Counted from the stretch's first letter, positions 20,059-36,886 are shown. The stretch: 64,000 nucleotides of DNA from Candidatus Multivoradales bacterium (GCA_965223855.1 CBDCXM010000009.1:1632001-1696000), one strand, 5' to 3'. Made by a program: numbers and translations. The notes: generated by a model from the letters alone, not told the origin.

Positions 20059-20084
20059 GCGGCGTACTTCGCCAACCGTCGTTT

Positions 20085-20460
20085 CGCGCGTCCCGAGGAT
20101 TCAGGCCGACAAAGCCCTTCTCCCCAACTGGCCGACCCGAGGACCGACCCCAGTTGGGGAGAACCCCTTTGTCGGCCTTGAGGGTAAGCCAAGAGGTGCA
20201 GCTTCTCGGCCAAGAGTGGAAGGGGGAAGGTGTGACGACCGAGCCTGCGGCTTTGTCTCTTGAGGGTTCGGCTACGTGCAGCCGCCGAGGGCCCGTTGTC
20301 TCTGGCGTCGCCTTCCGGCGACGCGTCCCCGGTCTCAACTGGGAGAAGCTGTAGCGCTCCGATCTATCAAGGGAGACAAAGGCTTTTCTCTGTCAGGGGT
20401 ATGGTCGGGTGAGGCCTGGCAGAGAAAGGGCTTTGTCTCCCTGAATCGACAGGACGCGCG
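20085..20460. repeat. Composite inverted-repeat element, copy 1 (two structured hairpin arms plus a 133-nt spacer); REPIN/MITE-like
   Basis: Hairpins at 20101-20181 and 20367-20444 are inverted homologues of each other and homologous to 36459-36829. Lies between convergent genes. Confidence 0.85.
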
Positions 20461-20469
20461 CAAACCCCG

Positions 20470-21828
20470 TCAGTCGGCCGGCTCACCCAGGATGGCCCTG
20501 AGCTCAGCCACGCGCGCCTCGAGCGCCTCCGGAGTCGCCGCCTCGCAGACGAGCCTCAGGTAAGGCTCCGTGTTCGAGGGCCGGACGTTGAACCACCAGT
20601 CGGAGTACTGGATCGTGATCCCGTCGACCTTGTCCAGCTCGCCGTCCGGGTAGCGTCGCTCGAGCTCCGCCATCGCCCCTTCCTTGTCCTCGACGACGAA
20701 GTTGATCTCCGGCGACTTCGAGTAGCGCTCCAGCCTGCCGGCGAGTGCGGACATCGGCTCGCCGCTCTTCCACAGCAGGTTGAGGATCTCGATCACCGCC
20801 ATCATCGACGAGTCGGCGTTGAAGTTGTCGCGGAAGTAGTAGTGGCCGGCGAGCTCGCCGCCGAACGGGGAGTTGCGCTCCCGCAGCGTCGCCTTGATGA
20901 AGGAGTGGCCGACCCGCTCGCGCACCGGCACGCCACCGTTCTCCCGGATGTACTCGGCCACCGCGCGTGAAGAGCGCAGGTCGTAGACGATCGCCGCGCC
21001 CGGCTCGCGCTGGAGGATCTCGCCGGCGATGAGCGCGGTCGAGAGATCGCTCCCTACCGGCCGGCCCTTCTCGTCGACGAAGGCGGCGCGGTCGGCGTCG
21101 CCGTCGAAGCAGACGCCGAGGTCGGCGCCCTCGCTCTTCACCAGCGCGCTCAGGTCGGCGAGGTTTTCGAGTTTCAGCGGGTTGGCTTCGTGGTTGGGGA
21201 AGGTGCCGTCGAGCTCGAAGTAGAGGGGCACCAGTTCGATACCCAGCTCCCGCAGCAGGTCCTCGTAGATCGTCCCCATGCCGTTGGCGGCGTCGACGGC
21301 GACCTTGAGGCGCCGGCCGTCTTCGGGCCGTCGCAGATGGGAGAGGACGAAGTCGCGGTAGTCGGAGCGGATGTCGCCTCGGGTCACCGTGCCGGGCGTC
21401 GCCGCCTGCGGCAGGTCGCCGGCGGCGACCTTCGCCTCCATGAGCGCGATGCCGGAGGCGCCGGAGACCGGTCGCGCCCCCTTGCGGCTGAACTTGAGGC
21501 CGTTGTAGCGACCCGGGTTGTGACTCGCCGTCACCTGGACGCCGCCCGCCGCACCGAGGTGGCCGACGGCGAAGTAGTTCATCGGCGTCGTTGCCAGCCC
21601 GATGTCGAGCACGTCGAGGCCGGAGGCCGTCAGGCCTTCGATCAGCGCCGCGGAAAGCGGCACGCTGCTGGTGCGCATGTCCCGGCTGACGACGATCGTG
21701 CTGTTGTCGGCCCGGTCCGAGTCGTCGAGCACGTGCTGGAACGCGAGTCCGATGGAGCGGGCCAGCTCCTCGTGGAGCTGGTCAGGGTAGATGCCTCGGA
21801 CGTCGTATGCCTTGAAGATTCCGGCCAT
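20470..21828 (-). CDS. Phosphomannomutase/phosphoglucomutase
   Basis: FKAYDVRG, TASHNP, FDGDADR, GELAGH, RPSNTEP. Confidence 0.93.
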   Translation of the reverse strand: MAGIFKAYDVRGIYPDQLHEELARSIGLAFQHVLDDSDRADNSTIVVSRDMRTSSVPLSAALIEGLTASGLDVLDIGLATTPMNYFAVGHLGAAGGVQVTASHNPGRYNGLKFSRKGARPVSGASGIALMEAKVAAGDLPQAATPGTVTRGDIRSDYRDFVLSHLRRPEDGRRLKVAVDAANGMGTIYEDLLRELGIELVPLYFELDGTFPNHEANPLKLENLADLSALVKSEGADLGVCFDGDADRAAFVDEKGRPVGSDLSTALIAGEILQREPGAAIVYDLRSSRAVAEYIRENGGVPVRERVGHSFIKATLRERNSPFGGELAGHYYFRDNFNADSSMMAVIEILNLLWKSGEPMSALAGRLERYSKSPEINFVVEDKEGAMAELERRYPDGELDKVDGITIQYSDWWFNVRPSNTEPYLRLVCEAATPEALEARVAELRAILGEPAD

Positions 21829-21897
21829 GGATGGTCCCTTCGGGAAAGTCGGGGGAGTTCAGGGAGGGAGCGTCGGCGGTTCTGCCGACGGCTCGAT

Positions 21898-22905
21898 TCA
21901 GGAGGTCGCGATCGTGTCGGAGCGACGCTCGAGGTGCTGCCGATAGCCGCGAACGAAGCGCGCCGCCGCCTCGAGGTGGGGAAGGTTGCCGCAGTCTTCG
22001 AAGACGTGGAGGTCGGCATGCGGCGCGCGTTGCAGCCACAGGTCGGCGGTCTCGACGGGCGGGTTGGCGGCCTGCCGCCCCCAGGCGAGCCATAGAGGCT
22101 GGGTGAGCCTGGAGATGCTCTCGAGCACGCGATGGTTGGAGTAGCCGCTGAGATAGGCGGCGAGCGCGACGTGGGCGCCCGGCTGGTGGCTCGAGTGGTA
22201 GAGGTGCCTCACATAGCCGGCGTCGGCGCGCTCCGGGGCATGGAAAACGTCTTTGCGCAGATACTGCCCGAGCGCCGTCTGGCTGGTGAAGAGGTTGAGC
22301 GCCGCAGTGCCGAAGATAGGGGTTCTCAGCAGCCAGTGTACGAGCGCGTCCTTGACGTCGGGCTCATCTCCTTCGACGTCGATGCCGGCAGGCACGACGA
22401 GCCCGAGGCCCGAGACGAGCTCGGGTCGGTCGACCGCGACCTGCGTGCAGTAGGCGGCGCTCAGGCCGGCTCCCAGCAAGGTCGTCCGCTCGCCGATGAC
22501 GTCCTCGCAGAAGGTGGTCAGCAGATCGATGTAGAGCTCGCCGTCGTAGGTGAGATCCGGCTTCTCGCTGCGACCCCAGCCGAGCAGGTCGATGGCATAC
22601 ACGGTGGCGTCGCCCGCGAGCACCTCGGCGACCTCGCGCCACTCCTCGCTGTCGTGCCCGGGGCCGAGGGAGTGGACCAGGAGGATCGGCTCTCCCGATC
22701 CGAGTCGCTGATAGGCGACTTCGCCGAGTTTCCAGGCGAAGCGCTGGCCGTCGCCCCAGGCGGCTCCGGCGAGGCGACGATTGCGCCGCGCGATGAGGGC
22801 GTTGGCGAGCGCCGGGATGCCGACGGCCGCCCCGCCGACCAGCAATCCCTTGAGGAGGCGGCCGCGGCGGCTGCGTTTCTGCTCTTCGTCCGAGTGGTTC
22901 GGCAT
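21898..22905 (-). CDS. Alpha/beta fold hydrolase with an N-terminal membrane anchor
   Basis: AIDLLGWGRS and GNLPHLE. The nucleophile elbow is atypical (GAGLS). Confidence 0.75.
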   Translation of the reverse strand: MPNHSDEEQKRSRRGRLLKGLLVGGAAVGIPALANALIARRNRRLAGAAWGDGQRFAWKLGEVAYQRLGSGEPILLVHSLGPGHDSEEWREVAEVLAGDATVYAIDLLGWGRSEKPDLTYDGELYIDLLTTFCEDVIGERTTLLGAGLSAAYCTQVAVDRPELVSGLGLVVPAGIDVEGDEPDVKDALVHWLLRTPIFGTAALNLFTSQTALGQYLRKDVFHAPERADAGYVRHLYHSSHQPGAHVALAAYLSGYSNHRVLESISRLTQPLWLAWGRQAANPPVETADLWLQRAPHADLHVFEDCGNLPHLEAAARFVRGYRQHLERRSDTIATS

Positions 22906-22999
22906 CGGGCGCGCGATGTTAGCAAGTGGCGGAGGAGAGGAGGAGGGGCGGCAGTTCCTGTCGGGGAAGGGGTATCGCCCACAGTAGTAGGGTCGCGCC

Positions 23000-23470
23000 G
23001 TGGGAAGAGAGTTCTCAATCCTCTGGATCGGGCGGCGGCGGCCGGAGTGGGAGGAGTTGTGCTCGCGCTACCGGACCCGGATCGAGCGCTCGGTCCCGGT
23101 GGTGGATCGCGTCCTGCGCTCGCCGACCGGACCGGACGACCGGCGAGTCGAGCTCGAAGCCGACTCGCTGCGGGCGGCCCTGCCGGAGCGCGCGTGGACG
23201 GTGGCGCTCGATCGTCGCGGGCGCCAGCGCTCCTCTCCGGAGATCGCCAGGTGGCTCACGCGGCGGCTCGAAGAGTGGCCGCACCCGGTCGTTTTTCTCA
23301 TCGGCTCCGATCTCGGCATCGCGCCGGAGTTGACCTCGGACTGCCGTGAACGGTGGTCGCTCGGCCCCCTCACACTGCCTCACGAGCTCGCCCGACTGGT
23401 GCTCTACGAGCAGCTCTATCGCGGTCTATCCATCGCTGCTGGAATCAAGTACCATCGCGGCCCGTTATAG
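23000..23470 (+). CDS. rlmH: 23S rRNA pseudouridine1915 N3-methyltransferase
   Basis: LDRRGRQRSS, FLIGSDLG, SLGPLTLPHELARLVLYEQLYR, KYHR. Confidence 0.92.
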   Translation: MGREFSILWIGRRRPEWEELCSRYRTRIERSVPVVDRVLRSPTGPDDRRVELEADSLRAALPERAWTVALDRRGRQRSSPEIARWLTRRLEEWPHPVVFLIGSDLGIAPELTSDCRERWSLGPLTLPHELARLVLYEQLYRGLSIAAGIKYHRGPL

Positions 23471-23501
23471 CGGTCTAACTCAGCCGGGAGGGTGATTTCG
23501 G

Positions 23502-23900
23502 GTGCCTAGCGCAAAGACAGCGACGCGGAAATTGGCCGAGAGTTCGAAGACTCGGTTCCGCCAGCAGCTCGAGAAGCATCGCGAGGAAATCCTGAGTCTC
23601 TACGAGCACGACCTCGAGGTCGGCAAGGGAGATTCGGACTTCGAGGCCGACGACCTGGTCGATCGGGCCAACCACGCCTACAACCGCGAGTTCATGCTCT
23701 CGCTCTCCGGCGGAGAGCGTGACCGGCTTCGCGAGATCGAGGCGGCATTGGCGCGTCTCGAGGACGACAGCTACGGAGTCTGCAAGCCGTGCGGCACGGT
23801 GATCCCTCAGGCGCGCTTGAAGGCGGTCCCGTGGGCGCGCTACTGTATCGATTGTCAGGAGCGCGAAGAGCAGGGAATGCTCGTCGATCCGGACGCCTAG
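23502..23900 (+). CDS. TraR/DksA C4 zinc-finger protein
   Basis: DLVDRA, YGVCKPCG..IPQARLKAVPWARYCIDCQE. Confidence 0.9.
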   Translation: MPSAKTATRKLAESSKTRFRQQLEKHREEILSLYEHDLEVGKGDSDFEADDLVDRANHAYNREFMLSLSGGERDRLREIEAALARLEDDSYGVCKPCGTVIPQARLKAVPWARYCIDCQEREEQGMLVDPDA

Positions 23901-23913
23901 ACACGGAACTCAG

Positions 23914-25299
23914 ATGAGGCTCAAGACGTTCGCGGGAATCCTCTTCGCCCTCGCGGTCGTCGTCTCCGTCGCCTACCTCTCGAATCAGAACGAGACCCTG
24001 CTCAACAGCAGGTTCGCGCTCAACCCGGTCGTCTCGCTACCACTCTATGTGGTGATGATCGGCGTCTTTCTCGCCGGCTTCCTGCCGGCGGTGTCGCTTC
24101 TGCTGCTGCAGTCGCTCAAGCGCGACCTGCAGGCGCGTCGCGACCGCCGTTCCAACCGGCAGGTCGAGAGCACCCGCGCCAGCTTCCGCAGGGCCGTGGA
24201 TCACCGGGCCGACGGTCTGTGGGGCAAGGCTCTCTCCGAACTCGAAGCGCTCGAGAAAGAGCAGCCCGAGAACTTCGGCACACTGCTCTACTACGGCGAG
24301 GCGCTCCGGGAGCTCGGCCGGGTCGACCAGGCGATCAACGTTCATCGTCGCCTGACCGTGCTCTATCCGCAGGGGCTGGCGGCGCTCTACGAGCTGGCGG
24401 CCGACTATGAGGCTGCGGAAGAGCCCGAGGTTGCCGATCAGATCTACGACCGCGTCCTGCGCGACTTTCCGGGGCAGGGGCTACGGGTCCACCGCCTCCG
24501 TCGCGACCGGGCGATCGAGGCGAAGGAATGGACGCTGGCCGGCGACGAGCAGGAGAAGGTCGACGCCCTGCTGGCGGGTTCGGGAGCGCCCGGTGAGAGT
24601 GAGGCCGAGGCTCGCGACGGGCTGCGCTACCAGAGCGCTGTTGCGCTGCTGCGATCCGACCGGCCCCGTGAGGCGCTCGAGGCATTGCGCGGCCTCCTCG
24701 AGCGGCGGCCCGACTTCGTACCCGCCCGCATCCTCCAGGGTGAAGTGCTCCAGGCGACGGGGGACGATCAGGGGGCACTGGCGGCCTGGAGTGCCGGGTT
24801 CGAGGAGAGCGGTCGAGCGGTCTACCTGCAGCGGATCGAGGACCACTTCATCGAGGCCGAGAACCCGATGCTGGCGATCGAGACCCTCCACGGCTGGATC
24901 GGTTCGGCACAGAGCGATCTGCTCCCGCGCTTCTACCTCGGCCGGCTCTACTACCGGCTCGAGATGCACGACGAAGCGCATCGGACGCTGGCGGCGATCG
25001 CCGATCGCGTCCGTTCCTCGCCGACCTATCACTACCTGATCGGCCGCATCCTCGAGCGCAAGGGCGACGCCGAAGGCGCGATCGCCGCCTATCGGACCAG
25101 TCTGCTGCAGGCGGGCATGGGTGAGGCGGAGTACATCTGCCGCAGCTGCGGCGATCGCCGCGTCGGCTGGGCGGCCTCGTGCGACCGCTGTGCGGCGTGG
25201 AACACCCTCGAGCTCGACTTCGAGGAAGAGACGCTCTCGGCCGAGGAGCTCGGCGTCCACGAGCGGCCGATCTACACCGTCGCCGACGAACCGGTCTGA
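23914..25299 (+). CDS. LapA-like/LapB-like TPR membrane protein with a C-terminal rubredoxin-type zinc ribbon
   Basis: Two N-terminal TM segments, TPRs (LRELGRVDQAINVH), YICRSCG...CDRCAAWNTL. Confidence 0.75.
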   Translation: MRLKTFAGILFALAVVVSVAYLSNQNETLLNSRFALNPVVSLPLYVVMIGVFLAGFLPAVSLLLLQSLKRDLQARRDRRSNRQVESTRASFRRAVDHRADGLWGKALSELEALEKEQPENFGTLLYYGEALRELGRVDQAINVHRRLTVLYPQGLAALYELAADYEAAEEPEVADQIYDRVLRDFPGQGLRVHRLRRDRAIEAKEWTLAGDEQEKVDALLAGSGAPGESEAEARDGLRYQSAVALLRSDRPREALEALRGLLERRPDFVPARILQGEVLQATGDDQGALAAWSAGFEESGRAVYLQRIEDHFIEAENPMLAIETLHGWIGSAQSDLLPRFYLGRLYYRLEMHDEAHRTLAAIADRVRSSPTYHYLIGRILERKGDAEGAIAAYRTSLLQAGMGEAEYICRSCGDRRVGWAASCDRCAAWNTLELDFEEETLSAEELGVHERPIYTVADEPV

Positions 25300-25307
25300 C
25301 CGACGGC

Positions 25308-26744
25308 GTGCACGAGAGCGTCGTCAAGGCGATCGCCGGCGGGCGGATCGAGCCGCTCTATCTCGTCGTCGGCGAGCGGGTGGCGGCCGAGCCGGCGGGC
25401 CTGGCGATCGCCGAGGCGGCGGCCGGGGCGATCGGAGCCGAGGTCGAGACGATCCGGCATCCGGCGGGTCTCGACGCGGTGCTCGGGGACCTGCGCACGC
25501 TGTCGCTCTTCGGCAGCGGCAAGGTGGTGCTGGTGATCGACTCTCAGCTGCTGACCGACGAGCACGGGGTCGCGGAGCTGATCGACGAGGCGGCGAAGTC
25601 GCTCCCGCTCGGTTCCGGTGACGATCTTTCGACGGATGAGCGGCGCGCGGCGGGGAGGCTGTTGCAGGCGCTTCGTCTCTACGAGCTCGATCCCTACGCC
25701 GGCTCGGTCGAGGAACTCCTCGGCAGGATGCCGGAGAAGGCGTTTCAGGGCGGCACCAGCCACCGGCGCAAGACCGGCAACAGGGCGCGCGGCAAGCGGC
25801 AGGTGGCGGGCCTCAAGGAAGGGCTCGCCCAGCTGCTCGGCCGCGCGCGCGCGCTCGAACTGGTCGGCTGGGCGGAGAACGACCTCGCGGAGTTGGGGAG
25901 ACTGGTCGAGGGTGGGCTGCCGCCCGGCCACACGCTGGTCCTGGTGGAGCGCAGTGCCGCCGCACAGCACCCGCTGGTCAGAACCCTCGATCGGCGAGAT
26001 GCGCTGGTCGTCCTCGAGACGGTCGATCAGAACCGTCGCGGGAGCTGGGAGGGGCTCGAGTCGATCGTCCGCCAGCTCGAGAGCGAGACCGGCGTCGGGA
26101 TCGACCGACCGGCACTCGACGAGCTCGCCCGCCGGACTCTGCAACAGAACGACTACCGCTCGGGCGGCGGTGCGCGGGAAGCGTCGACCGAGCGGCTTGC
26201 GGGGGAGTACCGGAAGCTCGCGAGCCTCGCCACCGGCGGCAGGATCGACCGCGAGCTGGTCGAGGACGCGGTCGACGATCGCGGCTCCGAGAACGTCTGG
26301 AAGATCCTCGATGCGATCGGTGCCGGCAACGCCGGCGAGGCGCTCCATCGGCTCGACCGGCTGCTCGCGGCCTCCGAAGATCCGGAGCGCGAGCGTCTGT
26401 CGTTCTTCGGTCTCGTGGCCGGTTTCGCCGGCAACCTGACCGCCATCGCCGGCCTCGCGCGGGCCAACGGCGTGCCGCGCAACGAACGCAACTACAACCG
26501 CTTCAAGAGCCAGCTCTATCCCAAGCTGACTGCGCCGACGCCGACGGGCAGGAATCCGCTCGCCGGCCAGCACGCGTTCAAGCTTCACCGCGCCTACCTG
26601 GCGGCTTCCAGGCTGCCCGCGGAGGTGCTGTCGCGGCTGCCGACCCGGGTGCTCGAAGCGGAAGTAGCGCTCAAGGGGGGCACCCGCCGCCCTGAAGCGG
26701 CGCTCGCCGTCCTGATCACCGAGCTGGCACACCCCGGCGCCTGA
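25308..26744 (+). CDS. holA: DNA polymerase III delta subunit (HolA)-like, with an internal insertion
   Basis: PLYLVVGE, LRTLSLFGSGKVVLV, EYRKLASL, NVWKILDAI, EVALKGG. Confidence 0.65.
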   Translation: MHESVVKAIAGGRIEPLYLVVGERVAAEPAGLAIAEAAAGAIGAEVETIRHPAGLDAVLGDLRTLSLFGSGKVVLVIDSQLLTDEHGVAELIDEAAKSLPLGSGDDLSTDERRAAGRLLQALRLYELDPYAGSVEELLGRMPEKAFQGGTSHRRKTGNRARGKRQVAGLKEGLAQLLGRARALELVGWAENDLAELGRLVEGGLPPGHTLVLVERSAAAQHPLVRTLDRRDALVVLETVDQNRRGSWEGLESIVRQLESETGVGIDRPALDELARRTLQQNDYRSGGGAREASTERLAGEYRKLASLATGGRIDRELVEDAVDDRGSENVWKILDAIGAGNAGEALHRLDRLLAASEDPERERLSFFGLVAGFAGNLTAIAGLARANGVPRNERNYNRFKSQLYPKLTAPTPTGRNPLAGQHAFKLHRAYLAASRLPAEVLSRLPTRVLEAEVALKGGTRRPEAALAVLITELAHPGA

Positions 26745-26802
26745 CCGACGCCCGGGGTCTATCGGGGCAGGCGTCGCCGCCCGGCGGCTTAGAATCGACG
26801 GC

Positions 26803-27627
26803 ATGCCGGAGCTGCCCGAGGTCGAAGTCCTGCGCCGCAGCCTCGCCGGACCGCTCCTCGGGCGCAGAGTCGAGGCGGTGCGCGTGCATCACACCGGGCT
26901 GCGCGAGCCGGTGGATCGCCGCTCGCTCGAGAAGGCGGCCGTCGGGCGCCGGATCGTCGCTCTCGGGCGGCGGTCCAAGTACCTGCTGATCGATCTCGAC
27001 GGTGCGCACTCGCTGATCGTCCACCTCGGGATGAGCGGGCGTCTCACCCTGGTGCCGGAAAGCGAGGAGCGCGAGTTGCACGAGCACGTCTCGTTCGCTC
27101 TCGACGACGGGCGGCGACTGCGCTTCCGCGACCCGCGACGGTTCGGCATGGTGCTGGCGCGACCGACGGAGACGCTCTTCGACGAGAGCCGGTTCCGCGC
27201 CCTCGGCCCCGAACCGCTCGACGGCAACCTCGACGGCAAGGCGCTGGCGGCGGCTGCCGAGCGGCGGAGGGGACCGGTCAAGGGCTTTCTCCTCAACGGC
27301 TCGGTCGTCGCCGGCGTCGGCAACATCTACGCCTGCGAAGCGCTGTGGCGTGCGGGCGTGCATCCGAAGCGCACGGTCGACCGCATCGCCGCCGCCCGGT
27401 GGGACCGACTCGCCGCCGCGGTGCGCGAGACGCTCAGTGACGCCGTCGAACAGGGAGGGACGACGCTCAACGACTTCGCCGACGGTGAGGGCAACAGCGG
27501 CTACTTCCAGGTGTCGCTCGCGGTCTACGGCCGCGAGGGCGAACCGTGCCCGCGTTGCGAGCGGCCGATCCGGCGGATCGTCCAGGGGCAGCGCAGCACC
27601 TTCTACTGCGTGGGTTGTCAGCGGTGA
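26803..27627 (+). CDS. mutM: Formamidopyrimidine-DNA glycosylase
   Basis: MPELPEVE, HLGMSG, DPRRFG, GVGNIY, C-terminal CPRC...CVGCQ zinc finger. Confidence 0.96.
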   Translation: MPELPEVEVLRRSLAGPLLGRRVEAVRVHHTGLREPVDRRSLEKAAVGRRIVALGRRSKYLLIDLDGAHSLIVHLGMSGRLTLVPESEERELHEHVSFALDDGRRLRFRDPRRFGMVLARPTETLFDESRFRALGPEPLDGNLDGKALAAAAERRRGPVKGFLLNGSVVAGVGNIYACEALWRAGVHPKRTVDRIAAARWDRLAAAVRETLSDAVEQGGTTLNDFADGEGNSGYFQVSLAVYGREGEPCPRCERPIRRIVQGQRSTFYCVGCQR

Positions 27628-27655
27628 AATCGTGCCGCAGAACGGGAGGTGGCCG

Positions 27656-28372
27656 ATGATCGAAGCGGTGCTGTTCGACATGGGAGGCGTGCTTTTGAGC
27701 CTTCAGAACGGGCGCGGCCTGCCGCAGGGGCGGACCGACTGGCGCGGCCGCCAGGCGCTGCTGCGCAGGATTCGCGACGCCGGCGGCCGGATCGAGGAGG
27801 GCGATCTCGACAAGCTGCTCTTCGACCGCTGGCGCGAGGAGTACGACGAGCGCTACCGGCGAGGGGCCGAGGCGTCATGGGAGCCGCACCTGGGTCGGCT
27901 TCGCGCCTGGGCAAAGGTCGAACTCGACGACCTCGATCTTCTGGGCGCCTGGTTCCGCCCCTACGGCGAGCAGCTCCCCGCCTTGCCGGGTGCGATCGAG
28001 ACGGTCCGCGAGCTGCGCGAGCGCGGCCTCCGGGTCGGCCTGGTGTCGAACGTGCCGATGCCGGGCGTGCTCTATCAGGCCATCCTCGCCGGCCACGGCA
28101 TCGCCGACTGGATCGAGACCTTCCACTTCAGCTACGACGAGGGGAGCCGCAAGCCGTCACCCGTCATGATCCGCCGCGCCCTCGCCGAGTTGCAGATCGA
28201 GCCCGCCCGCGCGCTGATGGTCGGCGACCGCCGCAGCAGCGACGTCGCCGCCGGCAGGGCGGCCGGCGTCGGCACGATCTGGCTGCGCCGTCACGACGGC
28301 GGCGGGCCGGAGCCCGACTACGCGATCGACGAACTGCCCGGAGTCCTGTCGATCGCCGAGTCGATCGGGTGA
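27656..28372 (+). CDS. HAD-family hydrolase
   Basis: LFDMGGVL, LVSN, RKPSP, MVGDRRSSDV. Confidence 0.85.
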   Translation: MIEAVLFDMGGVLLSLQNGRGLPQGRTDWRGRQALLRRIRDAGGRIEEGDLDKLLFDRWREEYDERYRRGAEASWEPHLGRLRAWAKVELDDLDLLGAWFRPYGEQLPALPGAIETVRELRERGLRVGLVSNVPMPGVLYQAILAGHGIADWIETFHFSYDEGSRKPSPVMIRRALAELQIEPARALMVGDRRSSDVAAGRAAGVGTIWLRRHDGGGPEPDYAIDELPGVLSIAESIG

Positions 28373-29133: not shown

Positions 29134-29497
29134 CGGGGGCGCTACCAGGTGTCGCCGAGTGGTTCTGTGAACCTGCGATATCGAGGCTTCAGATTCCGAC
29201 GAGCGCGCGACTGCCAGGGGCGTAGGTCACCCGACGACGCACCAGAGCCGTCGTACCCGGAGACCTTCGCCGCGACCGAGGAACCTCGAAAGCGGTCCTT
29301 CTCGAGAAGCCCTACGCACTCCGGCCACAGCCCGACAGCTGTCGAGGGAGGGACCCGCACCGCCGCCGACATCAAGTCAGGACAGCCCCACCTGAAGCCT
29401 TTTGCCTCGACCCAAGCTGGTCGAGATCGGTCAACCGTGAAGAGCCCGGCCTGGTTTCACAACCCGACAGGCGCGCCTCTCCGCCGTGCCGAAGCCG

Positions 29498-31276
29498 TCA
29501 GAACGGCCAGAAGACCGGAATCAGAATCGTCGCCAGGATCCAGAACAGCAGGTTCAACGGCGCCCCGAATTTCATGTAGTCGTTGAACTTGTAGTTGCCG
29601 GGGCCGAAGACCATGGCGTTGGTCTGGTAGCCCATCGGAGTCATGAAGGAGGCGGACGCCGCGTAGGCGACGGCCATCAGCAGGGGGCGCGCGTCGACCC
29701 CGAGTTGGGAGGCAGCGGTCATGGCGATCGGCGCCATCAGCACGGCAGTGGCGTTGTTCGAGAAGAACGAGGTCAGTAGAGACGTCGCGAAGTAGAGCAG
29801 TGACAGCATCGCCAGCGGGCCGTAGTCGACGCCGAAACCGCCGAGGATGCCGCCGATGAAGCCGTCGAGGCCGGTGTTCCGCATCGCCGTCGACAGCGGC
29901 AGGATCGCCGCCAGCAGGAAGATCACCGTCCAATCGATCGCGTGGTACGACTGCTGGATGGTGATCGAGCGGGTGACGAGCAGCACGACGGCGCCGAGGA
30001 TCGCCGCCTTGAGGATCGGCATGATCGACAGCGCGGAGAGGAGCACCACCAGGGCGATGGTGCCGGCGCTGATCCACCAGCGTGGCGACAGGTTGAGCTT
30101 GAGGTCGCGCTCCCCGAGGGCGACGAAGTCCTCCATCTCGTAGAGCGCCTCGACTCGCGAGCGCGGGCCGAAGACGAGGACCGTGTCCCACTGGCGCAGC
30201 CGGATGCGGGCGAGCTTCTCCTGAATCAGCTCGCCGGTGCGGTTGAGCGCCAGCACGAAGCAGCCGAAGCGGCGGCGGAAGTCGATCTCCTTGAGCGTCG
30301 AATCGACGAGCTCGGAGGCGGGCGAGAGCTGCACCTCGGCGAGGATGGTCTGGGCGTCCGAGAGGTCCTCGTCGCGAAGCTTGACGTCGGTCAGCAGCAG
30401 CAGGCCGAACTGCTCGCGGAAGGCGATGATGTCTTCGACGCCGCCGCGCACCAGAAGGACGTCGTCCTCGCGCAGCCGCTCCGAGCGCAGATCGGTGGCG
30501 ATCTTCTCCTTGCCGCGCAGGATCTCGAGCACGTTGAGCTGGAAGCGCTGGCTGACCTGTTCCTCGACGACGGTGCGGCCGATCAGCTTGGAGCCGGCCG
30601 GCACCCGCAGTTCCGTCAGGAAGCCGCTCAGGTGGTACTTGCGCGTCAGCGACGACAGGATCGCCCGCGACGGCAGGAACTTCATCGGCACCAGCACGTT
30701 GTAGACCAGCCCGACCGTCAGCAGGATGAAGCCGAGCTTGGCGAACTCGAAGACCTCGAACGGCGGCTGGCCGCCCTGCTCGGCGAGCGAGCCGACGAGG
30801 AGATTGGTCGACGTGCCGAAGAGTGTGCAGGTGCCGCCGACGACGGCGACGAACGACAGCGGCATCAGCAGCTTCGACGGGCTGACCCGGAAGTGACGGC
30901 ACAGGTGGATCGCCACCGGCATGAAGACGCTCACCGCCGCGGTGTTGTTGATGAACGCCGAGATGACGCCGACGAGTGTCAGCAGCAGGACGGCGGCGAC
31001 CATCTGGGACGTCCCGGTGAGGTCGGCGATGCGGTAGCCGGCCTTGGTGACAAGACCGCTCTGCACCAGCCCTTCGGAGAGGATGAACATCATCATCACC
31101 GTCACCACGGCAGGGTTGCTGAAGCCGGCGACCGCCTCCTCCGCGGAGACGAGGTCGAACAGCAGCAGCAGCCCGAGGCTCGACAGCGCGATGACGTCCA
31201 TCGACGCCCACTCGCGCACGAACGCGGTGACCGTCAGGAGGACGATGACCAGGAGGATGGCGATGTCGGGCGTCAT
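29498..31276 (-). CDS. SLC13/DASS-family permease with TrkA-C domains
   Basis: SAFINNTA, GTSTNL, two RCK_C-like domains, SNNATA, TPMGYQTN. Confidence 0.9.
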   Translation of the reverse strand: MTPDIAILLVIVLLTVTAFVREWASMDVIALSSLGLLLLFDLVSAEEAVAGFSNPAVVTVMMMFILSEGLVQSGLVTKAGYRIADLTGTSQMVAAVLLLTLVGVISAFINNTAAVSVFMPVAIHLCRHFRVSPSKLLMPLSFVAVVGGTCTLFGTSTNLLVGSLAEQGGQPPFEVFEFAKLGFILLTVGLVYNVLVPMKFLPSRAILSSLTRKYHLSGFLTELRVPAGSKLIGRTVVEEQVSQRFQLNVLEILRGKEKIATDLRSERLREDDVLLVRGGVEDIIAFREQFGLLLLTDVKLRDEDLSDAQTILAEVQLSPASELVDSTLKEIDFRRRFGCFVLALNRTGELIQEKLARIRLRQWDTVLVFGPRSRVEALYEMEDFVALGERDLKLNLSPRWWISAGTIALVVLLSALSIMPILKAAILGAVVLLVTRSITIQQSYHAIDWTVIFLLAAILPLSTAMRNTGLDGFIGGILGGFGVDYGPLAMLSLLYFATSLLTSFFSNNATAVLMAPIAMTAASQLGVDARPLLMAVAYAASASFMTPMGYQTNAMVFGPGNYKFNDYMKFGAPLNLLFWILATILIPVFWPF

Positions 31277-31447
31277 TGGCAGAGGAGTCCGGCGTGGGAG
31301 GGCGCGAGTGTAGCCGGTTGGGGGCTCGTAGCCGGCCGCGTCCCCCCTGACAGTGCCAGGAGCGGCTGCTTCTTCGACCCCGGGTCGCAGGGAGGGATCG
31401 AGCCAGGGTGCTCAGTTGCTAAACTCCGCCCGCTTCTGAAGGGGAGA

Positions 31448-32329
31448 ATGAAGATGCTGACCAGCCACCGAAACTGCTTTCTGATCGCCCTCGCCGCCCT
31501 GCTGATCGCGGGCTGCGAGGAAGCGCCGCAACCGGTGGGCGGGATCGCCGTCGAGCCGACCCAGATCGCCCTGCCCGCCTCGAGCTACACGCCGCTCGAG
31601 ATCACCGTCACGCCTTCGACGGCCCTCGACGCAGGCGCCGACCCGCACGTGATGGTGCACCTGCTCGACGCGTCGGGGACGGTGGTCCGTACCTTCGACC
31701 ACCCACTACCGGTCGAGTGGACCCCGGGGACTACGGAGAGCTATCCGATCGACCTCTACCAGTCGGCGCTGGCGCCGCCGCTCGACGCCGGGGCCTACCG
31801 TCTCACCGTGGGACTCTACGACCCGGCGGCCGGGCGCTGGGCGTTGACGGCCGCGGGCGAGGAGGTCGCGACGAGCGAGTATGCGGTGGCGACCGTCGAT
31901 GCAGCGCCGCGCCCGGAGGCGGGGCCGCGGTTCTTCTTCTCCCCGACCTGGCAGGCGACCGAGGCTGGGACCGACGTACAGATCCTCGGCAGGCGGTGGC
32001 TTCGCGGCGACGGCTCGATTCGGGTCGATCGCCTCGAGTCGGCCGGCACGCTGAAGGTGGTCGCCAGAATCCCGAAGCCGAACCCCGAACTGGAGGACCT
32101 CGTCCTGAGCGAGGGGTTCGACGGGGTGGTGCTGGAAGCGACCACGACCTGCTCGGATCAGAGCTGGACCTTCACCGGGCAGGGACGGCACGTCCTCGAG
32201 GTCTCAGTCGGAGCCGGCGCAGGGGAGTGCGAGATCGCCTTCGTGCCGCGGTATCAGATCGTCAACCGGCTCAACCTCGACGGGCGGGCGCTGGTCGTCG
32301 ATCTGCTCGCCTGGCAGCCGGCGGGCTGA
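31448..32329 (+). CDS. Hypothetical lipoprotein
   Basis: Lipobox LIAG-C; beta-rich, with VMVHLLD...TFDH and GAYRLTVGLY segments. Confidence 0.7.
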   Translation: MKMLTSHRNCFLIALAALLIAGCEEAPQPVGGIAVEPTQIALPASSYTPLEITVTPSTALDAGADPHVMVHLLDASGTVVRTFDHPLPVEWTPGTTESYPIDLYQSALAPPLDAGAYRLTVGLYDPAAGRWALTAAGEEVATSEYAVATVDAAPRPEAGPRFFFSPTWQATEAGTDVQILGRRWLRGDGSIRVDRLESAGTLKVVARIPKPNPELEDLVLSEGFDGVVLEATTTCSDQSWTFTGQGRHVLEVSVGAGAGECEIAFVPRYQIVNRLNLDGRALVVDLLAWQPAG

Positions 32330-32347
32330 AGCCGCTGAGTCTTTGAG

Positions 32348-32884
32348 CTAGCCGGCGGTCGAGAGCGTGACCGCCTGCTGGACCGGCAGGCCGTCGACGG
32401 CGCCGAGCGGCGTCCAAACCTCGACCTCTTCCTCGACCTGCTCACCGCCGCGCTCGACGGTCTCGGTCTCCATCGTGATGTCCATCCACTGCGCCTCGGT
32501 GAGCGCGACCTCGACGACGAACTTGCCGCCGGCCGGCATCTCCGGCCTCGAGGTCTCGGTCGTCCAGAAGTTGTAGAGCGGAATGTCGAGTTCGCCGCCC
32601 GCCGGCACCGGATACATGAAGAGCTGGTTGCCGTAGACGGTCAGGTCCTGACCGTTGAGGGTGACGCGGAAACCGAGTTGGGAAGCGATCTTGTCGCCGT
32701 CGTTGCGCACCTTGACGGTCAGCTTGCACAGCGTGTCCGCCGCCGGAGTCTCCGGATCGACGGTGATCCCGGTCACGGAGAGCTGGGACGCGGCGGTGGC
32801 CTCGTCCTGAGCGGCCAGTGGAGCGGTCTGGAGCGCGAGCAGCACGATGCCGGCCGCGAGGGCGGAGCGCAGGAAGATCTTCAT
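32348..32884 (-). CDS. Hypothetical secreted Ig-like protein
   Basis: Signal peptide (PLAA-Q), LTVKVRNDG CARDB-like strand, codon usage like its neighbours. Confidence 0.7.
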   Translation of the reverse strand: MKIFLRSALAAGIVLLALQTAPLAAQDEATAASQLSVTGITVDPETPAADTLCKLTVKVRNDGDKIASQLGFRVTLNGQDLTVYGNQLFMYPVPAGGELDIPLYNFWTTETSRPEMPAGGKFVVEVALTEAQWMDITMETETVERGGEQVEEEVEVWTPLGAVDGLPVQQAVTLSTAG

Positions 32885-32965
32885 CGTCGGGATCATAGCG
32901 GATGAGTGGGAGACAATAGGAATCGGGCGACGCGTCGCGATGTTGACGCCCTTCGAGGTCGAGCG

Positions 32966-33826
32966 ATGAGAACCGACGACGATCGAACTAGATTCCAGCG
33001 GTACGGCTGGCCGGCCATGGCGGTGGCCGGCGGAGTCTCCGCGCTCGGCTATCTGCGCAACCGCTTTCAGCACGGCTCGATGTTCCATCCCGACCGCTAC
33101 CCGAACGGGATCTGGAACCCGGCGCCCTACGGGCTCGACGTCGACGACAGCTGGTTCACCACCACGGACGGGGTCGATCTGCACGGCTGGTGGATCCCGC
33201 ACAAGCGGGCGCGAGCGACGCTGCTCTTCTGCCACGGCAACAGCGGCAGCATCGCCCATCAGATCGGCGTGCTGCGTCACCTGCGTCGCCTGCGGGTCAA
33301 CCTCTTCGCTTTCGACTATCGCGGCTACGGCCGCAGCTCCGGGTCGCCGAGCGAGAAGGGGCTCTACCTTGATGTCCGAGCGGCCCATGCTTTCGTCACC
33401 GGTGAGCTGGCGAGGCCGGTGGAGGAGGTGGTGCTCTTCGGCCACTCCCTCGGCGGAGCGGTGGCGATCGACGGCGCCGTCGATCTTCCGGTGGCGGGGC
33501 TCGTCGCCCAGGCGACTTTCACCGACGTGCGGGACGCGGCGCGCGCCTTCTACCCGACGCTCCCCGTGCATTGGATAGCCCGCGCCCGCTTCCGCTCGAT
33601 CGACAAGGTCGGCACCCTCGCGATGCCGAAGCTCTTCATTCACGGCGACGCCGACGGCACGCTGCCGCTCGAATTCGGAGAGCGGCTGTACGAAGCGGCG
33701 GCAGAGCCGAAAGAGTTCTACCGCGTAGCCGGAGCCGGCCACAACGACGTGCACCGGCACGGGGGTCTCGGCTACCTGCGCCGGCTCTCGCGGTTCGTCA
33801 GGAACTGCCGGGCGGCAGCTCTGTGA
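32966..33826 (+). CDS. Alpha/beta hydrolase (YfhR/ABHD-like)
   Basis: CHGNSG, DYRGYGRS, GHSLGG, IHGDAD, GAGHND. Confidence 0.88.
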   Translation: MRTDDDRTRFQRYGWPAMAVAGGVSALGYLRNRFQHGSMFHPDRYPNGIWNPAPYGLDVDDSWFTTTDGVDLHGWWIPHKRARATLLFCHGNSGSIAHQIGVLRHLRRLRVNLFAFDYRGYGRSSGSPSEKGLYLDVRAAHAFVTGELARPVEEVVLFGHSLGGAVAIDGAVDLPVAGLVAQATFTDVRDAARAFYPTLPVHWIARARFRSIDKVGTLAMPKLFIHGDADGTLPLEFGERLYEAAAEPKEFYRVAGAGHNDVHRHGGLGYLRRLSRFVRNCRAAAL

Positions 33827-33880
33827 TTGGAGTCACAGACCGCTCGAGGTGATTTCGCCACAATTCCGGCGGAGCCTTCG

Positions 33881-34387
33881 ATGGTCTGTCGTTTTCGCTT
33901 CTACTGCGCTCTCCTTGCGATCGGCGTGCTCGCCTCCTGCTCGACAGGCGGCGACCGCGGTACGCCGACCTCGCCAGGCAATACGCCGACGGTAGCCCAG
34001 GTCGAGTTCGACTCGTTCGCGCTCGTGAACGTCGCCCGCTCCGACAACGGCGTGCAGCCACAGCTCGTGTACGACGAGGCCCTCGCCGCGGTCGCGAGGT
34101 CCCACAGCGAGCAGATGCGGGATCTCGACTTCTTCGGCCACTCGGACGACCAGGGCCGCACAGTCGGCGGGCGGCTCACTGATGCCGGCATCGGCTTCAG
34201 CTCGGCCGGCGAGAACCTCGCCCGCACGACCAACATCGCCAACCCGGCCGTGTGGGCACACGATCAGCTGATGGCGAGCGACGAGCACCGCCCCAACATC
34301 CTCAACGAGGACTATCTACGCATCGGCGTCGGAGTGGCGCGCGCAGGGACGACGTACTGGATCACCCAGGTCTTCGTGGCCCCCTGA
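33881..34387 (+). CDS. CAP/SCP-domain lipoprotein
   Basis: Lipobox LAS-C; ARSHSEQM..FFGH, GENLA, HRPNIL, IGVGV. Confidence 0.88.
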   Translation: MVCRFRFYCALLAIGVLASCSTGGDRGTPTSPGNTPTVAQVEFDSFALVNVARSDNGVQPQLVYDEALAAVARSHSEQMRDLDFFGHSDDQGRTVGGRLTDAGIGFSSAGENLARTTNIANPAVWAHDQLMASDEHRPNILNEDYLRIGVGVARAGTTYWITQVFVAP

Positions 34388-34424
34388 TCGCCGCCCGAGC
34401 GTCCCGCCACGCCGGGTGCCGCAG

Positions 34425-35558
34425 TCAGTCGTGCAGGGCGGGGCCCGCCAGCCCGAGATCTTCGTAGACCGCGTTCGTCAGGGCGTCGAAGCGCCGACGA
34501 TGAACGTCGTCACCCGGTGCCCCGTTGACGATGCAGACGACGACCACCTGCTCTTCCGGGTCGGCGAAGGCGACCGCGGTGCGATGGCCGCCGTGACCGA
34601 AGGCGCGCGGCGAGGCGTGATCGCCGAAGCCGTACGGGAGGCCGGGGAGGTCGTGCCAGCGTGAGTTGACGATCACGCCGAGCCCCCAATCGAGCGGGTA
34701 GCGGAAGGTGTGGTCGAGCAGGCCGACCCGATGCCGGGCAGAAAGCGCCGCCACCGTCTGACGGCCGAGCAGCCGCGTGCCGTCGAGCGCGCCGCCGGCA
34801 AGCAGCGCCGACCAGAAGCGCGCGAGTTGGCCGACCGGGCCGATGCCGCCTCCGCCCGGTGAGCAGGCGGTGGTGTGGGTGCGGTCGGTCCACGGGAGCG
34901 GGGTGAGTTCGGCCCGGTCGTTCGACTCGCCGGCAGGGGAGGCTGTGTCGAAGACCGGCGCGATCCTGCGGCCGTAGCCGTCGTAGTGCTCCCCGGGCAT
35001 GCCGATCCAGCAATCGTCCATGCCGAGGGGGAGGAAGATCTCTTCGCGCACGTAGGTCGGCACCTCGCGGCCGTCGAGGCGTCGAATCAGCTCGCCGAGC
35101 ACGAACCAGCTCGACGACAGGTGATAGCCGGCCTTGCGGCCGGGGGTCCAGCGCGGCTCGAGCTTCATCTGCGCGACGGTGTCGAGGATCTCGGACCAGG
35201 GGCGCTCGGGGAAGCCGAGGCCGAGCTTGCGGATACCCCCGGTGTGGGTCAGCAGGTGCCGGACGGTGACCGCTTCTTTGCCCCCGGCGGCGAAGTCGGG
35301 CCAGATCGCGGCGACCGGTGTGTCGAGCTCGAGGAGACCGCGCTCCCACAGCTGAGCGATCGCCACGGCGACGACCGGCTTGGTGACCGACAGCCACAAC
35401 ATCAGGTGGTCGCGCGTCAACGCCTCGCCCGGGCGCGCCTCTCCGACAGCGAGATCGGCGACGGTCTCGCCGTCTCGCAGAACGCACAGCTGGCCGCCGA
35501 GGTGGAGCCCGGTCGCGATGCCGGACTCGAGAGCAGCGGTCGCGGCAGGCAGCGTCAT
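34425..35558 (-). CDS. Beta-lactamase-family serine hydrolase
   Basis: SVTK, LLTHTGG, GYH, FGHGG. Confidence 0.88.
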   Translation of the reverse strand: MTLPAATAALESGIATGLHLGGQLCVLRDGETVADLAVGEARPGEALTRDHLMLWLSVTKPVVAVAIAQLWERGLLELDTPVAAIWPDFAAGGKEAVTVRHLLTHTGGIRKLGLGFPERPWSEILDTVAQMKLEPRWTPGRKAGYHLSSSWFVLGELIRRLDGREVPTYVREEIFLPLGMDDCWIGMPGEHYDGYGRRIAPVFDTASPAGESNDRAELTPLPWTDRTHTTACSPGGGGIGPVGQLARFWSALLAGGALDGTRLLGRQTVAALSARHRVGLLDHTFRYPLDWGLGVIVNSRWHDLPGLPYGFGDHASPRAFGHGGHRTAVAFADPEEQVVVVCIVNGAPGDDVHRRRFDALTNAVYEDLGLAGPALHD

Positions 35559-35590
35559 CAGGCGGCGAGGATACCTATAATCTCCCTCCC

Positions 35591-36409
35591 ATGCCGCGCT
35601 TCCTCGCCGCTGCCGTGCAGCTCACCTCGACCTCGGACGCCGACGCCAACTGGCGCTCTGTGAAGGAGCTCGTCGCCCGGGCGGCGAGCCACGGCGCCCG
35701 CTTCGTAGCGACGCCCGAGAACACCAACTATCTCGGCCCGCACGAGGAGAAGGTGCGTCTCGCCGAGACGCTCGAAGGCCCGACCTGCTCGCGCTTCACC
35801 GAGCTGGCGGCCAAGCACGGCCTCCACCTGCTGCTCGGCTCCTTCAACGAGCGCAGCCCCGACCCGAACCGCTGCTACAACACCTCCGTCCTCTTCGGCC
35901 CCGACGGCCGGATCGTCGCCACCTACCGCAAGATCCATCTGTTCGACATCGATCTCTCCGACGACGTCCGCTTCCAGGAGTCGGCGACGGTGATGCCGGG
36001 CACAGAGGTGGTGGTGGGCGAGACGAAGCTCGGCGCCTTCGGCCTGTCGATCTGCTACGACCTGCGCTTCGGCGAGCTCTACCGCGCCTTGACTGCCCGG
36101 GGCGCGACGATCCTCACCGTCCCCTCCGCCTTCACCGCCCGCACCGGCAAGGCGCACTGGCTGCCACTCCTCCAGGCGCGCGCGATCGAGAACCAGTGCT
36201 GGCTCGTCGCCCCGGCGCAGAGCGGCCGCCACGACGACGACGGCCTGCGCGAAAGCCACGGTCACTCGCTGATCCTCGATCCCTGGGGGCAGGTCGTGGC
36301 GATGGCGCCCGAAGGGCCGGGGTTGGCGCTGGCGGAGATCGACACCGCACGGGTCGCGGACGTGCGCAGGGCGATGCCGGTGGCCGAGCATCGGCGGCTG
36401 CCGGGCTAG
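35591..36409 (+). CDS. Carbon-nitrogen hydrolase (Nit1/deaminated glutathione amidase-like)
   Basis: TPEN, YRKIHLFD, SICYDLRF, ARAIENQ, DPWG. Confidence 0.9.
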   Translation: MPRFLAAAVQLTSTSDADANWRSVKELVARAASHGARFVATPENTNYLGPHEEKVRLAETLEGPTCSRFTELAAKHGLHLLLGSFNERSPDPNRCYNTSVLFGPDGRIVATYRKIHLFDIDLSDDVRFQESATVMPGTEVVVGETKLGAFGLSICYDLRFGELYRALTARGATILTVPSAFTARTGKAHWLPLLQARAIENQCWLVAPAQSGRHDDDGLRESHGHSLILDPWGQVVAMAPEGPGLALAEIDTARVADVRRAMPVAEHRRLPG

Positions 36410-36458
36410 GCTCTCCGACAGACCACGGTTTCGGCCTTCAACCCCCTCCCTCCCCTCT

Positions 36459-36829
36459 CGCGGCCCACGGATTCAGGTCGACGAAGCCCTTTCTCTCAAC
36501 TGGCCAGCCCGACCCGACCCCAGTTGGGAGAAACCCCTTCGTCGCCCTTGACGGTAAGCAAAGCTGCAGCCTCTCCCGGGCCTGTCGGGGCGCTCCATTC
36601 CGGAGAGGCCTGAGAGTCGCTGGAGCGGGAGAACGCTCCTGAGAAGGAGCGTTTGAGCGAACTGGACTTCGAACCTCGATTCGGACTTCTGAAGCACTGC
36701 GGTGAGATCGGGAGAAGCTGTAGCGTGGCGGGTCATCAAGGGGGACGAAGGGGTTTCTCTCACCGGGGTCTGGTCGGGTTAGGCCGGTGAGAGAAAGGGC
36801 TTCGTCCCCCTGAATCCTCCAGACGCGCG
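36459..36829. repeat. Composite inverted-repeat element, copy 2 (two hairpin arms plus a 134-nt spacer)
   Basis: Hairpins at 36473-36551 and 36736-36813 are homologous to those at 20085-20460. Confidence 0.85.
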
Positions 36830-36886
36830 TTGTCGCCCAGGAACCGATCGCCAGCAGCTGAAGTCAGAGGGTGTAGGAGGTCGAAG

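Follow-up and report, generated by a model that had tools for sequence, protein, structure and literature searches.

A 64,000-nt stretch of DNA from a Candidatus Multivoradales bacterium (GCA_965223855.1, CBDCXM010000009.1:1632001-1696000; hereafter, the window) contains four copies of a hairpin motif, A to D, which are the arms of two foldback elements, E1 and E2. The repeat family to which they belong is real, is unreported in the sources searched and is found in one family of Thermoanaerobaculia-like Acidobacteriota. On balance, we lean towards reading the motifs as arms of a dispersed, non-coding, mosaic repeat of the repetitive extragenic palindrome (REP), bacterial interspersed mosaic element (BIME) or terminal inverted repeat (TIR) type, which would be read as a folded single strand. 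An invariant loop carried on a changing stem suggests that a protein reads the loop on this folded strand.

The original prediction, made from the window, had described four copies of a structured motif of ~80 nt. The positions and sequences of all four were borne out as written, including the bulged T (TCAGG/CCT-T-GA), the 3x3 internal loop (CCC/CCC, with CCC/AGC in copy B) and the CC..CCCGA..CC terminal loop. The copies are all present but are not free-standing, as they form two inverted pairs, each a foldback of ~380 bp. The conserved unit also extends beyond the hairpin (78-81 nt) to ~126 nt, with the layout TT.CGCGCGTCC-N5-GATTCAGG-hairpin-CCTTGA-N10-GCTGCAGCTTCTCC.

Four was too low a count. 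In the genome from which the window comes (G000; nine contigs totalling 4.52 Mb, with a G+C content of 68%), 10 full copies and one partial copy were revealed by nhmmer (E-values of 1e-15 to 2e-28) and by a covariance model (R1; 126 positions, 26 pairs; E-values of 8e-19 to 5e-29), and the model found further copies in relatives. Chance is excluded by the low E-values and by covariation above that of shuffled alignments (see below). The family lies outside Rfam: neither the 64-kb window nor six related loci matched Rfam 15 at gathering thresholds, and the best sub-threshold match, obtained in E-value mode, was a generic microRNA hairpin model at 30.5 bits against a threshold of 70. A description of the hairpin was not found in the text of the literature on Acidobacteria REPs and REP-associated tyrosine transposases (RAYTs).

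Stem pairing, folding strand and loop

The stems had been predicted to vary in sequence while staying paired, and this structure is kept by compensatory changes in the larger sets of copies. RNAalifold folded the four window copies into 26 pairs, 9 of them changed on both sides, and the 10 full G000 copies into 31 pairs, 16 of them changed on both sides. Among 45 model-aligned copies from five genomes, both sides had changed in 23 of the 26 pairs; there were 211 double-change cells compared with 65.6 +/- 8.2 after shuffling (0 of 500 shuffles were as high), and the covariation score was 0.42, against a maximum of 0.21 with slid partners. Because the 45 copies are related and were aligned to the model itself, these figures are tilted in favour of structure; the independent stem sets from other genera and metagenomes are free of the model-fit weakness. 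At one copy (C9:1353177), three extra base pairs stand in place of the 3x3 CCC/CCC loop. Judged from these alignments, the stem appears only to have to pair, and to be free to change otherwise.

Mismatches were used to determine which strand folds, and were counted by aligning the 5' arm to the reverse complement of the 3' arm, with no folding program involved (RNAfold prefers G.U). In the orientation of the original prediction, 36 copies from five genomes had 934 Watson-Crick pairs, 28 A.C and 6 G.T mismatches, together with 54 C.C (the internal loop), 13 C.T or T.C and 5 purine-purine mismatches. The same bias was seen in 60 distinct metagenome hairpins, with 117 A.C and 10 G.T cells, or 30 and 9 distinct sites when summed over stem clusters. 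Because an A.C mismatch on one strand is a G.T or G.U wobble on the other, the complement of the strand as originally read keeps a continuous helix, so it is this complement, the G-rich-loop strand with the loop GGGGYATGGTCGGGTGAGGCC, that probably folds, and not the strand written in the original prediction. The predicted fold was stabler on the complement in 31 of 38 copies. The copies are related and thus are not independent trials of strand asymmetry; the bias of A.C over G.T recurs in unrelated stem clusters. Deamination, whether on a strand exposed by transcription of the upstream gene or during lagging-strand synthesis, would be expected to give the opposite bias.

The genome contigs were scanned for the loop (pattern GGCCTNNCCCGACCANNCCCC) because a weak match from another genus combined an identical loop with an entirely different stem. 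At least 23 sites had at least 20 of 30 flanking bases complementary. Among the matches listed, the well-paired sites were all in records titled Acidobacteriota or Thermoanaerobaculia, and sites in other phyla scored no more than 13 of 30 and are chance matches. The exact 21-mer GGCCTCACCCGACCATGCCCC was detected at 78 sites on 77 metagenome contigs, and had no match in viral contigs. A total of 70 metagenome hairpins were complete, and the 60 distinct ones formed 15 stem clusters, in two of which the loop flanks barely pair.

As the same loop is found on unrelated pairing stems, the loop is fixed and the stem is free. The loop thus appears from these comparisons to be the most conserved part of the element, more so than the stem, which was not visible from four copies. 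Its four G-tracts are kept in every variant (GGGG-N3-GG-N2-GGG-N3-GG in the G000 type, GGGG-N2/3-GGG-N2-GGG-N2-GG in the related genome G002), and the G-rich loop could form a two-tier G-quadruplex. A search of G000 for a second site with the loop or its complement (up to 4 mismatches) recovered only the repeat copies and three chance-level sites.

Distribution, placement and mosaic build

In addition to the two pairs in the window, G000 has a further pair on contig C8 and four solo arms on contig C9, one of which is followed by the partial direct copy. Solo arms are found at four of the seven loci, and six of the 10 arms are in three head-to-head pairs. Across 61 genomes (G000 and 60 relatives), the covariance model, run with strict filters, detected 11 copies in G000, 22, 6 and 1 in three congeneric species, and none in one congener. 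Outside the genus, two of 56 genomes had one weak match each and the rest had none. When 301 genomes of the class were profiled for the loop, multi-copy matches were restricted to the window's own family (G000, n = 8; G019, n = 5; G028, n = 39), and the remaining genomes had at most two matches, like the reversed-pattern control. In other genera the unit is a single hairpin and not a pair. A g1-type arm pair (GATTCAGG...CCTTGA) with the exact loop was also found on a metagenome contig (L235), at 94-114(+) and 245-265(-); with its loops ~150 nt apart, it is a head-to-head dimer much shorter than E1 and E2.

The genomic context was profiled using open reading frames (ORFs) of at least 120 aa with a third-codon-position G+C above 0.8. 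All 10 G000 arms are intergenic, and seven are 6-45 nt past the stop codon of an ORF that is co-directional with the arm as originally read. The four solo arms are all co-directional with their upstream ORF, one of them at a distance of 263 nt. For 75 metagenome contexts, the upstream neighbour was co-directional in 29 and opposed in 9, with no call for the other 37.

The orthologous sites differ between species. The two genes flanking E1 are separated by ~30 nt in G003, and by ~215 nt in G002, where there is no arm and only a GTAG-type hairpin. The orthologue of the gene flanking E2 has a different neighbour and no element in G002, G003 and G004 (the G001 contig ends at this orthologue and is uninformative for the presence of E2). 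The copies are not tied to particular genes. Beside the solo arm at C9:402200-402325, an ORF starting MAKKKKEKSVEAIHHQD (C9:402070 downwards; L002) lies 130 nt past the arm; it fails the third-position G+C filter that all neighbouring genes pass and may have been horizontally acquired.

The hairpin is directly after the alanine racemase gene (alr) in four of four species of a sister genus (g16), and also on six metagenome contigs, and the next gene is a radical SAM gene in the four species and on five of the six contigs. The hairpin boundaries are identical each time (ACC/GATCG...CGATC/GTC, slashes marking the boundaries). The alr sense strand bears the C-rich loop in G028 and G334 and the G-rich loop in G019 and G035. 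The wobble (G.T) asymmetry of the stem flips along with the loop, so the whole hairpin, and not the loop alone, is inverted. The distal stems differ between the species, with compensated changes (TCCCAGGACTC, TCTCGAGACTC, TCTCCCGACTT and CCTTCCGCCTC). No hairpin follows alr in the genomes of two other genera. The arrangement of this site fits site-specific insertion or replacement in either orientation, or in-place flipping, and both orientations at one site would be hard to square with an RNA acting in a fixed transcript.

Several of the elements are built from more than one module. An additional outer hairpin with a GTAG foot, GTAGCCGGGGGACCCGTGCCCCCGG, bounds the G002 elements and also occurs alone, with 54 sites in that genome (e.g., C62:8081-8105 and C62:8531-8555; 0 control matches). 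It was absent from G000, G001, G003 and G004 at up to 3 mismatches, and the G002 contigs that carry it have no Y1 transposase gene. Deletion derivatives in G002 retain a single hairpin with both outer tails. A second module beside the arm is common to E1, the copy at C9:2287049 and two G002 copies (mean column identity 63%). The g16 hairpin belongs to a modular unit of ~450 nt (loci L082-L139, from records titled Acidobacteriota, and G028). The other parts of this unit are tandem 9-mers (GCCCCTAnn), which vary in number, and a module of ~170 nt that is strongly self-complementary and lies in either orientation. Rfam had no match for this unit, and REP-like TTGAGGC hairpins are often found ahead of it.

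Candidate enzymes and competing explanations

If the motifs are arms of a REP-like repeat, the working unit would be a hairpin of 26-30 bp with one bulge, a 3x3 internal loop, conserved unpaired tails and, as seen on the folding strand, a terminal loop of 17-21 nt. The stem would be required only to pair, and the loop would be the specific determinant. The element would be read as a folded single strand, either single-stranded DNA or RNA, on the complement of the strand as originally read. It would be non-autonomous, with copies spreading to gene-poor 3' intergenic space, often as head-to-head dimers such as E1 and E2. The enzyme responsible for spread or upkeep would act in trans, and the most plausible candidates would be RAYT-like Y1 HUH proteins. 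We infer the mobility of the element, the recognition of its loop by a protein and the Y1 HUH identity of that protein from the patterns described here.

Proteins of this type are common in the family, with 16 matches to PF01797 (Y1_Tnp) in G000, 10 in G002 and 3 in G003. One G000 protein of 304 aa has an HUH motif (NHAH) and a Y..Q motif, and among the NCBIfam models it is closest to REP_Tyr_transpos, scoring 47.8 bits where the cut-off is 80. The gene is within a repeated unit of ~1.23 kb whose inverted ends contain CCGGGTGAATAG. This unit is at C9:525457-526681, with copies near C9:92629, C9:3052813 and C4:7729 (L062), and has a ~155 bp tandem repeat 3' of the gene. Identity among the four closest copies is 88-100%, and with more distant relatives the genome reaches its 16 PF01797 matches. 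By analogy with published systems, the hairpins may be linked to Y1 enzymes, and three hints point the same way. In the commonest g16 stem cluster, the complement of the 3' flank GATCTACCACC puts GTAG directly 5' of the folding-strand foot; the outer hairpins of G002 have GTAG feet; and the heptamer CGGGTGA is common to the loop and to the inverted ends of the G000 Y1 elements, a sharing for which coincidence has only a slight likelihood.

A number of observations weigh against a mobile repeat served by such an enzyme. The dedicated enzyme envisaged in the original prediction was not found as a gene flanked by copies, either among the G000 Y1 matches or in 200 hairpin-bearing loci. None of the 16 G000 matches is near any hairpin copy, and a phmmer search of the six-frame ORFs of the 200 loci with the 304-aa protein gave a single match, which flanks no copy; a response-regulator gene lies in the 1.2 kb between it and a degenerate copy. 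No transposase gene of any kind was flanked by hairpin copies: Pfam annotation of the 100 nearest of 246 flanking ORFs identified ordinary housekeeping genes and three unrelated transposases. Of 41 genomes of the family, 34 have Y1_Tnp (a tally that includes the unpublished G005), so its presence or absence does not track that of the repeat. No target-site duplication was seen at E1, E2, the C8 pair or the G002 elements, and no contig from four runs joins across an empty site. The copies are ~80% alike, so any spread would be old. In most copies the folding strand runs antisense to the gene upstream. GC skew puts the C-rich loop on the leading strand, and the folding strand on the leading-strand template, in three of four G000 solo copies and 9 of 13 G028 copies, a weak bias opposite to that of IS608-type elements. 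Finally, the hairpin (~80 nt) and the unit (~126 nt) are large for a REP, the hairpin being 2-4 times longer than REPs of 20-65 nt as given in the published text, and the loop of 17-21 nt is invariant across genera, whereas the REP loops described there are of 2-20 nt and REPs are species-specific.

The most substantial competing explanation is that the hairpin is a host RNA element, i.e., a small RNA or part of a 3' untranslated region or antisense transcript, whose invariant loop binds a conserved host protein or RNA; it might set 3' ends, stabilise mRNA or block antisense read-through, and its dispersal would be secondary. We regard this as unlikely, while recognising that one-strand asymmetry of the G.U type is the classic mark of a folded RNA, that the loop is invariant across genera, that most copies are a few bases past stop codons, and that the hairpin is kept at alr in all four g16 species with compensated stem changes. 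The same copies, however, mostly have the folding strand antisense to the adjacent upstream gene, and the occurrence of both orientations at one orthologous site would place the complementary loop in any given transcript. Neither a sigma-70-like promoter nor a canonical terminator was found on the arms, no Rfam family was matched, the copy number ranges from 0 to 39 among related genomes, and the orthologous E1 and E2 sites are empty of the element in sister species. The alr site brings up a further idea, that the loop is the address for a dedicated single-strand enzyme that inserts, replaces or flips the whole hairpin at fixed sites. Such a loop-addressed mobile hairpin would be of a new kind, moved without transposase-type ends and without duplication of the target; we consider it quite unlikely.

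The remaining explanations are less probable still. The elements could be classical miniature inverted-repeat transposable elements (MITEs), that is, deletion derivatives of a DDE-type insertion sequence (IS) with long terminal inverted repeats and an incidental arm hairpin. The small size of E1 and E2 (~380 bp), their inverted ends, their lack of an ORF, the variable cores and the deletion derivatives in G002 would all suit this origin, which is nevertheless improbable given that no target-site duplication was seen and that G000 and the other genomes searched have only solo arms or ~380 bp pairs and no longer element with these ends. Solo arms are moreover common (four of seven G000 loci), other genera have a single hairpin and not a pair, and the covariation and strand asymmetry within each arm are needless for double-stranded inverted ends. 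Quasi-palindrome correction is known in bacteria and gives paired double changes, and template switching at quasi-palindromes might therefore mimic compensation in a sequence with no present function, a case to which the age (~80% identity) and small number of the copies lend something. We judge it very improbable, as it accounts neither for the identical 21-nt loop that different genera carry on unrelated stems, nor for the one-strand bias of A.C over G.T (3:1 to 10:1), nor for the conserved bulge, 3x3 loop and unpaired tails. The ends of IS200/IS605-type elements and integron attC sites, both named in the original prediction, do have hairpins recognised on one folded DNA strand and extrahelical bases. 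The left and right IS ends are on one strand, whereas the paired arms here are inverted copies of each other with their asymmetric features on opposite strands, and no TnpA or TnpB gene, or any ORF, is between the arms, nor is TnpA or TnpB beside the copies. An attC site has the core sites R''/L''..L'/R', a cassette array and an adjacent intI; the arms end in GATTCAGG/CCTTGA, with no attC end consensus, and are scattered as solo copies or inverted pairs with no attC-like array (intI was not searched for). The anatomy of the arms thus largely refutes both, and we give them a negligible chance.

The REP-like repeat that we favour was compared with known systems. REPs are described in the text of one survey as 20-40 bp long, with stems of 5-13 bp, loops of 2-20 nt and either a GTAG or a CGTC tag; most are found 3' of genes, and most form head-to-head dimers (PMC3733652). 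REPs, BIMEs and REP doublets forming hairpins (REPINs) associated with RAYTs are, in the published text, dispersed extragenic hairpins mostly 3' of genes, non-coding and in mosaic combinations (PMC3733652, PMC6006769), as are the copies here; head-to-head dimers predominate, and they are thought to act as a folded single strand. Forms with a GTAG foot also occur in relatives (the outer hairpins of G002 and the g16 type-1 hairpin). The likeness to REPs proposed in the original prediction therefore holds for the dispersal, the intergenic placement, the head-to-head pairs and the absence of a gene inside, but does not extend to a flanking enzyme gene, as a REPtron (a Y1 gene flanked by copies) was not found among the 16 G000 Y1 matches and the 200 loci. 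G000 also differs in having only 10 copies, and these are without an unpaired GTAG: the folding-strand foot of the 10 copies is YRTC-AAGG (CGTC, n = 5; CATC, n = 3; TATC, n = 1; CCTC, n = 1), in which TC is paired and there is no clean unpaired tag.

Closer in phylum are the TIRYTs, including an Acidobacteria-specific group, which are described in the text as flanked by long, partly self-complementary inverted repeats that form their own families (PMC3733652). Likewise, class 3 TnpA-Y1 genes of Acidobacteria and Planctomycetes are described as having atypical secondary structures on their flanks, and such structures also recur many times elsewhere in the host, with ~600 copies in one genome (text of PMC6006769). 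The family studied here is from the same phylum, and shares with these systems, as far as their text describes them, abundant RAYT-like Y1 genes and long self-complementary dispersed repeats; its loop contains CGGGTGAG, which agrees with 7 of 8 positions of the published GGGGWSAS motif. It is unlike them in that no Y1 gene examined is flanked by the hairpin, and the shared heptamer could be due to chance. The published Acidobacteria structures were compared by text description only, so the family may be identical to one of them. On that textual basis, it fits the REP/TIRYT kind in placement, dimer form and phylum, and differs in size, in the cross-genus loop, in the lack of a flanking gene and in in-place inversion.

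More distant systems share single traits. Hairpins at rolling-circle and CRESS-DNA origins are nicked by an HUH Rep protein and have an invariant loop and a covarying stem on one folded DNA strand; they are single-copy, beside a rep gene, and their loops are of ~9-12 nt. The copies here are chromosomal and without such an adjacent gene, so the analogy would be one of mechanism only. Bacterial MITEs that fold as RNA have orientation-dependent effects on mRNA; their inverted ends are of 15-30 bp, they are flanked by target-site duplications and they have a DDE transposase of their own. The arms here are 126 nt long and each is itself a hairpin, and neither a duplication nor a parent element was found. 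What the two have in common is that they are small non-coding inverted-repeat elements beside genes and fold into strong hairpins. Examples of such MITEs, listed in PMC3733652, are the ERIC/IRU, Correia/NEMIS, RUP and YPAL elements.

The usual definition of REP-type repeats, which are species-specific, rests on a short stem and a tetranucleotide at its foot, whereas specificity here would be in a long cross-genus loop. If a protein does read the loop, the ~13 kinds of well-paired stem that carry it would be a natural substrate series for finding that protein, and could give insight into the target choice of HUH-like or other single-strand enzymes in Acidobacteriota, in which few mobile elements have been studied. 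For the annotation of genomes in this lineage, the covariance model tells these elements apart from terminators and candidate small RNAs.

Features of the window

The coordinates of the two elements and their neighbouring genes are given in Table 1. Arms A, B and C are downstream of the Zn_peptidase_2, phosphoglucomutase and CN_hydrolase genes, respectively, and arm D faces the start of the TonB_C gene.

Table 1 The E1 and E2 elements, their arms and the flanking genes in the window.
Feature	Position	Strand	Description
Element E1	20082..20463		382-bp foldback, two inverted arms around a ~128 bp core, between convergent genes
Arm A	20082..20209	+	C-rich-loop orientation; hairpin 20101-20181; covariance-model match 96.6 bits, E = 8e-19
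E1 core	20210..20337		B-side half is the second module (GTCGCCGGAAGGCGAC hairpin, then CCAGAGACA..GGG)
Arm B	20338..20463	-	Hairpin 20367-20444; covariance-model match 132.7 bits
Element E2	36454..36832		379-bp foldback
Arm C	36454..36580	+	Hairpin 36473-36551; covariance-model match 110.9 bits
Arm D	36707..36832	-	Hairpin 36736-36813; covariance-model match 134.8 bits
Zn_peptidase_2 gene	19372..20058	+	Pfam E = 2.7e-84; stop codon 24 nt ahead of arm A
Phosphogluco/phosphomannomutase gene	20470..21828	-	Pfam PGM_PMM_I to IV; stop codon 7 nt from arm B
CN_hydrolase gene	35591..36409	+	Pfam E = 4e-62; stop codon 45 nt ahead of arm C
TonB_C-domain gene	36887..37609	+	Pfam E = 1.5e-22; start 55 nt past arm D

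Folded as RNA, E1 has a predicted energy of -202 kcal/mol (z = -6.5 relative to shuffled sequence), with both arm hairpins folding separately and closed by the pairing of the outer stems CGCGCGUCC and GGACGCGCG. The minimum-energy fold of E2 is a single long foldback of -241 kcal/mol (z = -12.6 relative to shuffled sequence). The cores of the two elements are unrelated to each other. Arm A has the loop variant GGCCGACCCGAGGACCGACCCC, and arm B has the loop GGCCTCACCCGACCATACCCC and a single C.A mismatch, which is G.U on the + strand. A simple scan detected no sigma-70-like promoter in E1 or E2 and no canonical terminator on the arms, the one weak terminator-like site being inside the E1 core.

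Among same-sample contigs from four runs, one covers E2 intact and others hold variant forms of E1, which therefore varies between co-occurring strains. The variant contigs, from runs X1 and X3, correspond to positions 20034-20460 of the window. One of them has 22 gapped positions, including a 2-nt insertion in the arm A loop, and in another a B-like arm replaces arm A, together with ~400 other bases. The cumulative GC skew of contig C9 has its minimum at ~0.76 Mb and its maximum at ~2.98 Mb, which are likely the origin and terminus, and the window (1.63-1.70 Mb) is on the replichore with the + strand leading.

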